DNA of 44,951 nt from a virus: UHGV virus genome UHGV-0212259; one strand, written 5' to 3'. This document shows positions 3,222 through 14,472 of this stretch, in pieces; position 1 is the first letter of the stretch, and every line of letters starts with the position of its first letter. The notes below the pieces were generated by a model. It saw only the letters and a list, made by a program, of their open reading frames with translations, searched no databases and was not told where the DNA came from. The position numbers and the translations under genes were made by a program.

Positions 3222-3253
3222 TTGCGCACCCCAATATAATAGGGTACTATTCA
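3222..3253 (+). promoter_or_regulatory. Promoter with overlapping palindromic operator (type A: TTGCGC-N7-TATAAT overlapping TAATAGGGTACTATTCA)
   Basis: TATAAT at 3235..3240; 23-nt core CCAATATAATAGGGTACTATTCA identical to sites at 5375..5397 and 38826..38848; first ATG 25 nt downstream. Confidence 0.55.
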
Positions 3254-7227: not shown

Positions 7228-8478
7228 TTAAAGTGCGAAAGTCACCGGGATGTTGATTACTGGTTTAACCACCGGCATCTCATAAACTACAGGATAGCCG
7301 AGAGCATCTGCCATATGGTCAATGATGCCGTCTTTAGCTGGCTCTCCATTATCGTCGTATGCCTGCTGCTCCAGCGTCTTCGCTATCTCAGGGCATAAGT
7401 GGTCGTTAATCCACAGCTTACCTTTTTCCAGCGCGGTATTCACCGCTAAAACACGGTCTTTAACCGGGGGGTTGGCGGATTTAGCGCGAACATCAAAACC
7501 GGCCTGCTGTAGTAAGGCGATATCAGAGATTGATGCCGAGTTGGTTTTGCGGTTCTTGCCGCTGGCGTCGGGGTAAACGACGATGCGGTGGCCCTGCGAC
7601 TTCCACTTCTCGGTAATTACCCGCACGGTGTCTGGTGTATCGAACAGGCCTTTCAGTTCTGCAACCGCGTGCCAGCCGTCTTTACGCTGCACATACACGG
7701 CGCTGGCGTTCTTCGTAACGTTGAAGTCCTGCCCTATGTACAGCGTGTCCCCCGGTTGAATCGTCTCTTTGCTGCGATGTTTGCGGCGGTCATAGGCGTA
7801 ATACACGCTGCCGGAGGTAAGGTTGACGAACTCACCATTCAGGTACGCGTTAATCAGTTGCGCCGGGTAAGTCTCTGTCAGCGAGCTAATGTAATCCGGC
7901 GGAAGGAATCGCGCATTCTCGTGAGTTGATGCCTGCACCATTGAGTAACTCGGTGTCGGATTCTCTTTGAACTTGGCAAAGACGAACTTGAACCCTTCCG
8001 GCGTCGTGGTAACAGAGATGTGGTTAGTTACGCCAGGAATAACCAGACGCATACGGGCTACAATTTTGTTCCACGCCAGCTCAGCTTTTTCGCGACTCAA
8101 TACGTCCAGCTCATCCACGACCGCAGCCGCGATTTTGAAGCCCACAATCGAACCGGGGTTATCCATCGAACGGCAGATAACAGTACCGAGCACCGTCTTA
8201 CCCCGAGTAACCACAACCTCTTTGTCGCCGGATTTAACCAGCACATCAAGGCCGAGCAGGTTAGCCGCCTCCTCGAATGTTGGGTAGAAGATGTCGCGTA
8301 TGGCCGGGTATGTCGGGCCGAAGTAGCCAAGGCGCGTACCAGGGTGCTTTAGCATAAAAGTAAGCAGGTCAAGGCAGCCGACGAAGGTCTTGCCACTGCC
8401 GAAGCCGCCGACATAGGCCTTGTATTTGTTATCGCAATTCAGAAACAACGCCTGAGGGGCCGATAGCTGGATACTCAT
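7228..8478 (-). CDS. Terminase large subunit
   Basis: 416 aa; N-terminal Walker A-like GGFGSGKTF; start overlaps stop of upstream small-subunit gene; followed by portal. Confidence 0.85.
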   Translation of the reverse strand: MSIQLSAPQALFLNCDNKYKAYVGGFGSGKTFVGCLDLLTFMLKHPGTRLGYFGPTYPAIRDIFYPTFEEAANLLGLDVLVKSGDKEVVVTRGKTVLGTVICRSMDNPGSIVGFKIAAAVVDELDVLSREKAELAWNKIVARMRLVIPGVTNHISVTTTPEGFKFVFAKFKENPTPSYSMVQASTHENARFLPPDYISSLTETYPAQLINAYLNGEFVNLTSGSVYYAYDRRKHRSKETIQPGDTLYIGQDFNVTKNASAVYVQRKDGWHAVAELKGLFDTPDTVRVITEKWKSQGHRIVVYPDASGKNRKTNSASISDIALLQQAGFDVRAKSANPPVKDRVLAVNTALEKGKLWINDHLCPEIAKTLEQQAYDDNGEPAKDGIIDHMADALGYPVVYEMPVVKPVINIPVTFAL

Positions 8479-9020
8479 TCCTCCACCTCGCCCATATTCG
8501 TTGTTACTATTTTACCTACAGGCTCCGCGACACTGAAAATAATCTCGGTCGGTGCCGGTTCTTCGGTGGATTCGACTGGTTTATCTTTGCCAAGACCCAG
8601 CTTAGCCGCGGCAAACGTAGCAGAAATACCGGCGGCCCCTGTCTCGGTAAAGTATGCCTCTTCCAACGCCTGCGCGGTTTCATATGCTTCTGCAAATGCG
8701 GGAATCTCGCGCAACCACAGCTTAATAATCGGGATAGTGACGCCGATGTGCAAGGCAAAACGGGCCAATGACGGTGGTTTATCCTGAATCAGCGGGCGTT
8801 CGTCACCCTTTGACGTAGGCACTAGTTCCCACGACGTGCGGTCGAAGAAACGAATCAATTCGTCGCAATAGTCCGGGTCCCACAACGCGGCGGAATTACG
8901 GGATGATTGATAAAGGCTCTGTTTACCGCGCGGTCGTCTACGGCGACGGTTTGCGCTAACAGCTTCTTCATGTGCCGCTTGCACCACCTCTGGCGATGGC
9001 TGCTTAAGTTTCAGCTTCAT
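8475..9020 (-). CDS. Terminase small subunit (putative)
   Basis: About 181 aa ORF directly upstream of and overlapping the large terminase gene; basic N-terminal region; start placed at ATG 9020 with AAGGGGA SD (track ORF extends to 9059). Confidence 0.5.
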   Translation of the reverse strand: MKLKLKQPSPEVVQAAHEEAVSANRRRRRPRGKQSLYQSSRNSAALWDPDYCDELIRFFDRTSWELVPTSKGDERPLIQDKPPSLARFALHIGVTIPIIKLWLREIPAFAEAYETAQALEEAYFTETGAAGISATFAAAKLGLGKDKPVESTEEPAPTEIIFSVAEPVGKIVTTNMGEVEE

Positions 9021-12499: not shown

Positions 12500-12940
12500 T
12501 TATCCTAATAGTTGTTTGGTAATAATCTTGCCGCCGGTGTTAGTGTCGAACTTCGATGCAACGGCTACGCCGCCATGCGCCGAATATTCGCACTCCATAG
12601 CGGCTAATGCATATGGCGAGCCAGACCCCACGGCGGCGTACACATCAGCAACCGGAATAACTGAACTAAGTGCACAATCCCATGATTTATAGAACGCGAC
12701 TTTGTACACCTTTTCTGTGTCTTTCACGAACACCAGGGCTTCGAAATCGAAGTCATAATGTCTTGCCTGAAGGATATACGGACAATCGATAAGCATAGTT
12801 CCGACTCCGGCATCACCAGCTACCCCGATAACATAGACATCACTCTCATATATCTTTGTGTCTGTGTTGTAACAGTTACTTCCGCACACAACACGGGTGT
12901 CACAGGCCATTGTCTTTCCGTCAAACGCGATTGTAGTCAT
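12500..12940 (-). CDS. HslV/proteasome-beta-like N-terminal-nucleophile hydrolase (putative threonine peptidase)
   Basis: 146 aa; begins MTTIAFDG (Thr directly after Met as in HslV); VIGVAGDAG and AVGSGSPYALAA segments resemble HslV GFAGG and GSGGPYA blocks; similarity judged from memory. Confidence 0.5.
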   Translation of the reverse strand: MTTIAFDGKTMACDTRVVCGSNCYNTDTKIYESDVYVIGVAGDAGVGTMLIDCPYILQARHYDFDFEALVFVKDTEKVYKVAFYKSWDCALSSVIPVADVYAAVGSGSPYALAAMECEYSAHGGVAVASKFDTNTGGKIITKQLLG

Positions 12941-13230
12941 TTATGTCTCCAGATGTATTGTCGTCTCTGCGGTTTCGTCGGAATATCTTCATACCCCAGC
13001 GATTTCCAGTAATTAAATAACCTATTAGCGATAGCTGCGCGTTCCTGTGTTTTGAACTCACCGAGATTCACGGCCTTCCCGTTCTGAAATCCACAGGCGC
13101 GGACCGCTTTGCGTCTGGCCTGAATCTCTGGGTACAGCGAGTTACGGCGGCGCTTATGTATTCTGGTGTTCGCTCTCGGTGACAGCGGCGCAAGGCCGCT
13201 TCGTTTCAGGATGTCAGTTGCAAGAGACAT
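12937..13230 (-). CDS. Small basic protein, possible AP2-like DNA-binding domain
   Basis: About 97 aa from ATG 13230; segment NGKAVNLGEFKTQERAAIANRLFNYWKSLGYE resembles the AP2-like C-terminal region of the two HNH endonucleases in this window. Confidence 0.3.
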   Translation of the reverse strand: MSLATDILKRSGLAPLSPRANTRIHKRRRNSLYPEIQARRKAVRACGFQNGKAVNLGEFKTQERAAIANRLFNYWKSLGYEDIPTKPQRRQYIWRHK

Positions 13231-13517
13231 CACTCCACCCCTTCCACATGTGTAACAGCCCCACAGTTCGCGCACTCGACGTAATCCGGGAACTGGTCTT
13301 TGTATTTCTGTAACTCGGCGTTCACTTCTGCCAGTCTTGACACAAGCCCCTCTATTTCCATATCCGTAGTGGTTATGTAGTCCTGGAAACTGTCGTCCAG
13401 TTCCTTGTAATCTTCGTAACTTATCCAGTCGCCTTCGTCACTCTTAACCAGCTCATGATACGGGTGGCACGAGTTAACACACACAGCTCTAAACTCATAT
13501 CTCTGTACCATAATCAC
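13230..13517 (-). CDS. Hypothetical protein with C-terminal CxxC
   Basis: 95 aa; CVNSCHPYHE and YVECANCGAVTHV motifs. Confidence 0.35.
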   Translation of the reverse strand: MIMVQRYEFRAVCVNSCHPYHELVKSDEGDWISYEDYKELDDSFQDYITTTDMEIEGLVSRLAEVNAELQKYKDQFPDYVECANCGAVTHVEGVE

Positions 13518-13717
13518 TTCTCCTGTTTACCAAGTCGCTTAGGTGAGCATATAGCGCGTACCTCTGAATCGTTGGGCTTGTCGCCCTGAAACAGGAAGTG
13601 CGCGTTCTCTGCGGCGCGTGCTGCAGACTGGCACGCCTCCATCGAATAAAACGTTTCTGCTGCCGCTAGTTGCATCTGGCCCGCAGACAGTACCCAGATA
13701 AAGAGGATGCCGGTCAT
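13514..13717 (-). CDS. Small secreted/periplasmic protein (signal peptide)
   Basis: 67 aa; N-terminal hydrophobic signal-like segment MTGILFIWVLSAGQMQLAAA. Confidence 0.35.
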   Translation of the reverse strand: MTGILFIWVLSAGQMQLAAAETFYSMEACQSAARAAENAHFLFQGDKPNDSEVRAICSPKRLGKQEK

Positions 13718-14412
13718 TCAGGTATAACCCCTCCGCAGTTGTCGCATACTATCGTGTTTCCGTGGTAGGTACCGCAGTGGGCAGGAACGCACTGACATAC
13801 AGGAAGCCCCACGTCTTCCTTACGGCAACCAGATTGCTCGGCTATAACCCCGCATTTGGCACAACGCCTATGCTCTTCGCCGTTAGGGTAATAATATTCC
13901 CACTCATGTTTGCATTTCTGCGTATAGGCTTTCGGCTCATACTCCGGGTCATCCCACTCACGCACACCACATTCGCAGCAAAACCGACTACCAGGCACGT
14001 TGCCCTCGTGGCCTTCGGCAATAAACAATCCTGGAGCGATAATCCAATTGTGGTCGCATTCCTGAGTATCTTCTTTTCGGCAACCGGATTGTTCTGGTGC
14101 ATCCTTACATCCGAGTTCCTCAAGTGCTTTGCTAAGGTATTGGCGACGCATGGTGTCAGTCATTGCACTATTTGCCCGCCGGATGTACCCAATCGCGCCT
14201 TTAGGGTCCAGGTCAACGATTGAACGAAGACACATAACCTCGTTTTCAGCGCAATCCAGCGCACAGGTTAGTTCCTTAATCTGCGCCGAAGCATCACGTA
14301 ACTGATTCTTAAGTGACTGCACTTCATGCGCCAGGTCTTCGCACCGGTTGTTATTTACCTGCTGCCGTAGCTGGTCAATCAGGTACTCGAATACTTCGTT
14401 TTTGTTACTCAT
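13714..14412 (-). CDS. Cys-rich protein with N-terminal coiled coil and internal repeat (probable zinc-binding)
   Basis: 232 aa; multiple CxxC pairs (CCECG, CAKCG, CDNCGG); the nonapeptide EQSGCRKED occurs twice. Confidence 0.45.
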   Translation of the reverse strand: MSNKNEVFEYLIDQLRQQVNNNRCEDLAHEVQSLKNQLRDASAQIKELTCALDCAENEVMCLRSIVDLDPKGAIGYIRRANSAMTDTMRRQYLSKALEELGCKDAPEQSGCRKEDTQECDHNWIIAPGLFIAEGHEGNVPGSRFCCECGVREWDDPEYEPKAYTQKCKHEWEYYYPNGEEHRRCAKCGVIAEQSGCRKEDVGLPVCQCVPAHCGTYHGNTIVCDNCGGVIPE

Positions 14413-14440
14413 ATTCTCTCTCTCCTCTCGTTTGTGTAAA

Positions 14441-14472
14441 TGAATAGTAGTCTATTCTATCTCAGTGTGCAA
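14441..14472 (-). promoter_or_regulatory. Promoter with overlapping operator (type A, minus strand)
   Basis: Minus-strand TTGCAC-N7-TAGAAT followed by AGACTACTATTCA; palindrome TGAATAGTAGTCTATTC at 14441..14457; about 30 nt upstream of ATG 14412. Confidence 0.5.

Follow-up and report, generated by a model that had tools for sequence, protein, structure and literature searches.

Why does a small phage protein carry the same nonapeptide, EQSGCRKED, twice, each time ahead of a cysteine-rich block? The question is raised by the virus genome UHGV-0212259, analysed here as a window of 44,951 nucleotides (nt), which represents the near-complete ~45-kb genome of a Kagunavirus-like siphophage (Guernseyvirinae); its nearest relatives are the E. 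coli phages CR01, M01 and UTEC10. The protein, made of 232 amino acids (aa), is encoded on the minus strand (13714..14412, ATG start) and combines a coiled coil with two copies of the nonapeptide, referred to here as joints, and three putative mini zinc ribbons. An original prediction made from this sequence had taken the two copies for an internal duplication. Judged from the comparison with related phages, EQSGCRKED is a repeated, family-wide joint, a conserved link between cassettes, and no recent duplication took place. The ORF (open reading frame), a Shine-Dalgarno sequence (AGGAG, 14422..14426, minus strand, 9 nt upstream of the ATG) and membership of PHROG 6094 (hmmscan E=9.7e-47 and 159 bits, with aa 1-188 aligned to positions 1-135 of the 142-position profile) support a real, expressed-looking gene.

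All parts of the gene discussed below are given as minus-strand coordinates. A constant N-terminal region (aa 1-48, MSNKNEVFEYLIDQLRQQV...CEDLAHEVQSLKNQLRDAS..., 14269..14412), consisting of invariant or near-invariant alignment columns, is the sole part found in essentially all relatives. It is followed by a helical 'middle' module (aa 49-105, TCALDCAENEVMCLRS...GAIGYIRRANSAMTD...LEELGCKDA, 14098..14268), which is optional and present in some relatives only, then by joint 1 (aa 107-115, 14068..14094), ribbon 1 (aa 119-149, 13966..14058), ribbon 2 (aa 167-188, 13849..13914), joint 2 (aa 192-200, 13813..13839) and ribbon 3 (aa 206-227, 13732..13797).

Conserved joints and the origin of the second copy

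The presence of EQSGCRKED at both positions was confirmed; by our rough estimate, about 5e-8 exact 9-aa repeats would be expected by chance in a protein of 232 aa. At the DNA level the two copies shared 22 of 26 nt, with synonymous third positions accounting for the differences. The same pattern extended to relatives: across 35 joint copies from 34 genomes, the first and second codon positions were nearly invariant, and in the codons for E, S, R, K, E and D the third position was free to vary. Variation of this kind points to selection on the peptide and not to a recent duplication of the DNA, and since this selection would act at the amino-acid level, the joint probably has a role beyond that of a spacer. 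Joints were common in the family, with one copy in 100 of the 120 close homologues, two in 7 and none in 13, and the family form of the motif is (P)EQSGCRKED. Degenerate versions lacking the cysteine (SPGRQKEDAQEC) also separate ribbons in relatives, which suggests that the ancestral repeating unit consisted of a joint plus a ribbon. Both joints were predicted to be disordered and were the least confident segments in two AlphaFold2 (AF2) runs, with a predicted local distance difference test score (pLDDT) below 50 over aa 106-118 and aa 194-211.

A recent tandem duplication that produced the second joint together with extra ribbons would account for two copies of a 26-27-nt stretch lying 255 nt apart, and for the TQxCxHxW start common to ribbons 1 and 2. 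Several results speak against it. The copies differ at 4-5 synonymous positions, the sequences that follow them are unrelated (the knuckles being alike at only 5 of 8 residues), and the motif itself is the joint of the whole family. Each copy is also closest to a different phage lineage: copy 1 and its flank to L005, L006 and L010, copy 2 with ribbon 3 to L026 (96.8%), where L-numbers denote 45 related loci (L003 being phage ZCSE9) and P-numbers the proteins of relatives. The junction between ribbon 2 and the joint recurs in P0017, and the 85-aa stretch between the joints appears as an acquired two-ribbon cassette and holds no copy of adjoining sequence. No close relative (>98% nt identity) was seen that had a single joint with both flanks as found here, and the best donors differed from segment to segment. 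We therefore consider an internal duplication essentially excluded. The nonapeptide is present twice because an extra ribbon block was acquired, a joint preceding each of the two blocks.

Segment-wise BLAST against the 45 loci gave a different best match for each part of the gene. Gene nt 1-318, covering the N-terminus and the middle module, were nearest to L002 and L005 (96-98%); the DNA of the middle module was matched in only 4 of the 45 loci, at 97-98% identity. The two-ribbon cassette (nt 346-573) was nearest to ZCSE9, L004 and L007 (89-93%), the ribbon 1 DNA alone being 92-93% identical to these three. Joint 2 with the CxC ribbon (nt 574-699) matched L026 at 96.8% and L002 at only 75%, though L002 also has a CxC ribbon. 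On these best matches, the copy studied here is a mosaic of three sources.

Mosaicism of this kind was found throughout the family, whose plan is a constant N-terminus (MSNKNEVFEYLIDQLRQQV followed by CEDLAHEVQSLKNQLRDAS), optional helical inserts or alternative middles, the joint, and a string of mini-ribbons, each of 18-31 aa and of the form CxH(x)W...CxxCG or CxC...CxxCG. The 120 close homologues carried no ribbon (3 proteins), one (35), two (71), three (10) or four (1), and a coarse classification distinguished 52 C-terminal architectures in 182 proteins. Within that set, the order joint, long ribbon, short ribbon, joint, CxC ribbon occurred only in this phage and its near-identical twin P0001. 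A comparison of 41 phage genomes from IMG/VR, GenBank and ENA yielded 40 distinct proteins of 106-232 aa, this copy being the longest. Mean pairwise identity was 0.93 for the second constant block (38 genomes), 0.93 for the 67-aa protein encoded immediately downstream, and 0.35 for the remainder of the variable protein after the block.

Some relatives have their ribbons replaced or joined by an unrelated beta domain of ~55 aa (W..W.GG.CPVP.DT.V.I..R.G...W...DIV.Y), which was found in L020, L021, L027, L028, L029, L034, L037 and L044 and in P0101, P0120 and P0170. This domain had no significant Pfam match, a weak similarity to Phage_lipoprotein (E=7.6e-4) lying below the cutoff. Natural deletion or fusion variants also occur. 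In L022, L006, P0136, P0159, P0168 and P0181, the constant N-terminus is fused either directly to the downstream 67-aa ORF or to the C-terminal end of the ORF after that (..CANCG..THVEGVE). Deletions between short homologies thus readily affect the whole block. A diversity-generating retroelement was considered as a source of variability and dropped, no reverse transcriptase being noticed among the neighbouring genes scanned.

Structure and family of the protein

The predicted N-terminal coiled coil was borne out by register analysis and by structure prediction. Heptads extended over aa 24-66 (14215..14343, minus strand), with an unbroken register of 12 successive hydrophobic a/d positions (L27, V31, L34, L38, A41, I45, L48, L52, A55, V59, L62 and V66); C24 precedes this run. 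AF2 modelled a single helix over aa 2-68 (pLDDT 80-93), followed by two short helices. The protein is acidic (isoelectric point, pI, 5.0) and contains 19 cysteines in total; as it lacks a signal peptide, a cytoplasmic location is expected. A reading of 'SGC' within the joint as a lipobox was dropped, as there is no signal peptide at that position.

The C-terminal half was built of zinc-ribbon-like units, as had been proposed: it holds three modules that share a plan consisting of a knuckle (CxH or CxC), 12-26 residues, and CxxCG. Ribbon 1, of the long type (CDHNWIIAPGLFIAEGHEGNVPGSRFCCECG), has C119, H121, C145 and C148 as putative ligands and beta strands modelled at aa 123-125 and 143-145. 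Ribbon 2 (CKHEWEYYYPNGEEHRRCAKCG; putative ligands C167, H169, C184 and C187) was the best-modelled of the three, with strands at aa 171-174 and 181-184 and a pLDDT of 82-84. Ribbon 3, of the CxC type (CQCVPAHCGTYHGNTIVCDNCG; putative ligands C206, C208, C223 and C226, with H212 and C213 spare beside them), showed strands at aa 214-217, 220-223 and 229-231. In the two AF2 runs the ribbons were small beta units of moderate confidence (pLDDT 49-84); the second run, on the C-terminal half, had a mean pLDDT of 63, and the confidence was no better. According to these models, the N-terminal part is rigid and helical, and the ribbons follow it like beads on a flexible string. Clustered Cys/His knuckles in cytoplasmic proteins are normally zinc sites and not disulfides.

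Conservation of the cysteine pattern had been named as the test of the zinc-ribbon assignment. The two-knuckle pattern was kept in 250 of the 261 ribbons found in the 182 proteins; the first knuckle was CxH in 234 of them, within the pattern CxH...CxxCG, and CxC in 16, and 210 had a tryptophan at +4. A motif scan of the window detected the ribbon pattern in no further credible ORF. Similarity to known ribbons stayed below significance. Foldseek against the PDB returned no match better than E=1.1, its few local, non-significant matches of 28 residues being to ZifS (8yoz), an archaeal ribosomal protein, the N-terminal ribbon of a Nudix protein and RNA-polymerase zinc ribbons. Among the Pfam zinc-ribbon families, the best was PF14803 (Zn_ribbon_Nudix), at E=0.14 and 12.6 bits against a cutoff of 25.6. 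In ribbon 1 of P0026, a deletion between two Pro-Gly dipeptides (CEHSWIIMPG/SELCSKCG) has turned a 31-aa ribbon into an 18-aa one, which suggests a possible route by which long and short ribbons interconvert.

Homologues were abundant within one phage group. The protein database contained 1010 of them (140-291 aa), all of Guernseyvirinae type, and the protein was found in 229 GenBank phage records, all from Salmonella, Escherichia and related enterobacterial Guernseyvirinae. An exhaustive phmmer search of 1.84 billion cluster representatives retrieved only 66 clusters (50% identity), all of the same family, and no relatives beyond it. By these searches, the PHROG 6094 family is confined to the Guernseyvirinae. 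Sequence searches of Pfam, NCBIfam, PADLOC and the PDB yielded nothing beyond coiled-coil noise below threshold; the PADLOC models of defence and counter-defence produced no match, JetC reaching E=0.045 and 9.9 bits as coiled-coil noise only. BFVD contained only uncharacterised relatives from K1ind1, SE-W109 and vB_StyS-sam, and database labels read 'hypothetical protein' or, occasionally and spuriously, 'tolA-binding protein', 'lactocepin' or 'cell division protein'. Members of PHROG 6094 such as K1ind1 D2XJK8, ZCSE9 gp51 and the 5sent1 'putative tolA-binding protein' are encoded at the same place, with the replication module on one side and the lysis cassette on the other, and have the same coupled gene downstream. 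The typical member is 140-180 aa long with one or two ribbons; this copy has 232 aa, three ribbons and two joints.

Flanking genes and upstream element

The gene belongs to a minus-strand run of small genes that starts at a divergent control region beside the helicase-primase gene and continues into the holin/endolysin, terminase and head genes. A DUF551 protein is encoded upstream. Three genes downstream lies a homologue of the HslV/proteasome-family peptidases (PHROG 1040, 12500..12940, minus strand, E=2.8e-33), between the small-gene cluster and the lysis genes; ZCSE9 has it at the same relative position.

Immediately downstream, an ATGA stop/start overlap (13714..13717, minus strand) couples the variable gene to a 67-aa gene (PHROG 3766, 13514..13717, minus strand), a core gene of the subfamily that bounds the variable region on its right-hand side as a conserved flank. 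The overlap was present in 34 of 43 related loci, and in most of the others the downstream start lay no more than 2 nt from the stop. In nearly all genomes the frame of the variable gene was open up to the coupled stop, whatever its C-terminus. The 67-aa protein has a hydrophobic N-terminus, an AAA/E site and two cysteines; its gene is ~93% identical across Kagunavirus and Jerseyvirus and was found in 475 phage records, nearly always at full length. The two-gene arrangement was kept even in a more distant phage (P0146), whose homologue has a different N-terminus.

Ribbon-like motifs were also observed in neighbouring genes. A 95-aa ORF two genes downstream (13230..13517, minus strand) likewise has an acidic helical segment and ends in an ECANCG half-ribbon, and PHROG 29624 matches its last 35 aa. 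The upstream neighbours of the variable gene in L020, L011 and L025 also bear CxH...CxxCG or CDHCG motifs.

The original prediction placed the gene just downstream of an early promoter. A promoter-like element, TTGCAC-17-TACTAT (14444..14472, minus strand), was indeed present, its -10 hexamer lying inside the palindrome AATAGACTACTATT (14443..14456), and it is plausible as a member of a repeated motif. As a consensus promoter it did not hold up: it matched TTGACA-17-TATAAT at only 7 of 12 positions, short of a criterion of at least 9 of 12, and was not listed by a sigma-70 scan. Promoter-like sites were not in excess in the region by that scan (10 against 8.0 expected). The palindrome AATAG-N4-CTATT occurred 10 times in the window against 0.04 expected, as 14-nt sites at 3238, 5382, 11188, 14443, 14826, 16039, 19526, 22011, 26091 and 38833. 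Five copies (3238+, 5382+, 38833+, 14443- and 16039-) share TTGCAN-17-TACTAT, each upstream of a ribosome-binding site (RBS) and start codon, and in three others (19526+, 22011+ and 26091+) the palindrome lies in the spacer of consensus TTGACA or TTGACG promoters. In Jerseyvirus relatives, the outer positions of the palindrome covary from G..C to T..A. The motif tgAATAGTa-ccTATTat-T corresponds to the repeated 'phage promoter' predicted by PHIRE in Kagunavirus fBC-Eco01 (PMC9825357). From its sequence and recurrence, the element upstream of the gene is very probably regulatory, and the palindrome looks like a shared operator or promoter signature. Among the 45 related loci, only 7 had the element upstream of the gene; elsewhere the start codon is directly adjoined by another ORF. 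The sigma-70 scan listed a further promoter-like site, TTTACA-16-GAGAAT (14413..14440, minus strand, 9 of 12 matches), which has a -10 that ends at the base before the start codon and overlaps the RBS, and is probably fortuitous.

With regard to early expression, time-course RNA-seq of the Kagunavirus vB_Eco_K1B4, the one such study of a Kagunavirus that we found, classed only four genes as early (PMC12645636). The Glimmer annotation of K1B4 (Table S2) leaves a gap of ~400 nt (8399..8797) with no gene called at the homologous position (PMC12645636). As this gap lies directly upstream of a 204-nt gene that matches the 67-aa gene by size and position, the K1B4 homologue was probably neither annotated nor quantified in that study.

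Possible functions and known systems

Collectively, these data led us to favour, by a modest degree, the view that this is an accessory gene of Kagunavirus-like phages, encoding an oligomeric scaffold that displays variable zinc-stabilised binding modules and is diversified by cassette exchange. We hold the architectural and evolutionary part of this explanation with high confidence, and the binding function proposed for the ribbons with low confidence. The coiled coil would oligomerise the protein, and the flexible joints would display several zinc-stabilised mini-domains as multivalent binding modules. Because the set of modules differs between phages, their partner may itself be variable, a factor of the host or of a competing element, so that the target would change between hosts or competitors. 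Diversity would arise when co-infecting relatives recombine: the gene's constant 5' part and the highly conserved, translationally coupled gene downstream would provide the homology arms, and internal crossovers would fall at the joints and at short microhomologies.

A stronger version, which we put forward as tentative and on balance doubtful, is that the Guernseyvirinae maintain a hypervariable locus dedicated to a cytoplasmic protein, with a pool of interchangeable cassettes, mini zinc ribbons and others, that determine which factor of a host or competitor, such as a defence sensor, the protein binds or evades. The 5' 150 nt and the downstream gene would be the arms, and EQSGCRKED a functional short linear motif. 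Such a locus would be an intracellular counterpart of the swapping of receptor-binding proteins. Some points weigh against a displayed, diversified binding scaffold. Small phage genes are commonly mosaic, which need not mean selection for diversity. The relatives that have the ~55-aa beta domain and no ribbon at all indicate that ribbons are inessential to the role of the constant part. Furthermore, the BASEL collection's Kagunavirus phages are described as highly sensitive to restriction-modification (RM) systems, with a sensitivity to the Old defence system that varies (PMC11990801), and hence give no sign of a strong anti-defence activity.

Other functions would fit parts of the evidence. 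The protein could be a dimeric nucleic-acid-binding regulator in which the coiled coil pairs the ribbons on RNA or on DNA, for instance on AATAG-N4-CTATT at phage promoters. Zinc ribbons frequently bind nucleic acids, the weak local Foldseek matches included ribosomal and RNA-polymerase ribbons and ZifS, and a palindrome present 10 times in the genome would suit a dimer. We nevertheless consider this rather unlikely: the palindrome is shared between genera, yet conservation is lowest in the ribbons, which can even be absent; the protein is acidic, as are ribbons 1 and 3 (pI 4.8-5.3); and the palindrome would more obviously be bound by the helix-turn-helix (HTH) proteins encoded in the divergent control region. 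Alternatively, the variable protein and the 67-aa protein could form one unit acting in superinfection exclusion or lysis timing, the constant N-terminus docking to the 67-aa protein at the membrane and the variable ribbons sensing or effecting. Conservation of the ATGA coupling in most loci, including the distant P0146-type phage, the position of the gene pair directly upstream of the lysis cassette, and a constant N-terminus with a variable C-terminus, which recalls anchor-plus-specificity designs, all agree with such a unit. It is unlikely in our judgement, since the 67-aa gene was found in 475 phage records and the N-terminus of the variable gene in 229, so that the 67-aa partner is often present alone. 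The 67-aa protein may also be exported (an AxA-like site follows its hydrophobic stretch) and would then be in another compartment.

Two further explanations were given still less weight. If only the N-terminal ~48 aa, or nothing, were functional, the C-terminal part would be neutral debris of frequent illegitimate recombination, as the many truncated, frameshifted or fused variants in the assemblies (P0136, P0138, P0145, P0159, P0168 and L022) and the dispensability of ribbons might imply; a frame kept open to the coupled stop in nearly all genomes, ligand residues conserved in 90% of ribbons and purifying selection on the joint make this quite improbable. The joint could instead be a processing or recognition site in a polyprotein-like precursor, from which a peptidase such as the phage HslV-family protein would free the ribbon blocks. 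A disordered yet conserved peptide resembles cleavage or docking motifs, and the HslV-family gene keeps its position in ZCSE9. Consecutive ribbons without a joint are common, however, no gene of a peptidase family (Pfam) was flagged in the same region of L002, and we know of no precedent for such processing, so that we regard this explanation as very unlikely.

If the scaffold with exchangeable cassettes is the correct explanation, the locus would be a compact natural case of domain-shuffling evolution in an intracellular phage protein, and EQSGCRKED a candidate short linear motif in bacteria-phage biology, a field in which, to our knowledge, few such motifs are known. Should the ribbons be target-recognition cassettes, they would offer an easily engineered specificity module in phages used for therapy and in synthetic biology; Kagunavirus and Jerseyvirus genomes are of 41-45 kb, and CM001 and BASEL Bas70-76 are available. 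Should the gene be merely another mosaic ORFan, the value would lie in a better annotation of ~1000 'hypothetical proteins'. What was already known comprises the gene as a 'hypothetical protein' and the palindromic motif; we found no description in the literature of the modular plan, the conserved joint, or the contrast between hypervariable cassettes and constant flanks.

As to its kind, the gene is a mosaic phage accessory gene encoding a putative zinc-ribbon protein, and no new category is called for. Like the zinc-ribbon fold group (C4 or C3H, such as PF14803, ribosomal and RNA-polymerase ribbons and ZifS, 8yoz), its modules have two knuckles around a putative beta hairpin, of 12-26 residues here, with short AF2 strands beside each knuckle. 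Unlike that group, they have CxHxW instead of CPxCG as the first knuckle and follow a coiled coil in varying numbers, threaded on a conserved linker. Proteins of the DksA/TraR type combine a coiled coil with a C4 zinc finger, and their phage members bind the secondary channel of RNA polymerase. The protein studied here resembles them in being a small phage accessory protein with a predicted coiled coil and Cys-rich, putatively zinc-binding motifs. It differs in that their coiled coil is a hairpin with an acidic tip and here is one long N-terminal helix, and in having several hypervariable ribbons of another type. A DksA/TraR-like function was dropped, as zf-dskA_traR was not among the Pfam matches at E<=10 and AF2 gave a single N-terminal helix and no hairpin. 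The arrangement of a conserved 5' part, exchangeable 3' modules and a conserved downstream flank is shared with receptor-binding proteins, polymorphic toxins and 'polyvalent proteins'. Proteins of those kinds have known activities and are large, being structural, secreted or injected, whereas the present one is small and expected to be cytoplasmic, with modules of 20-30 aa; the likeness is one of evolutionary mode only.

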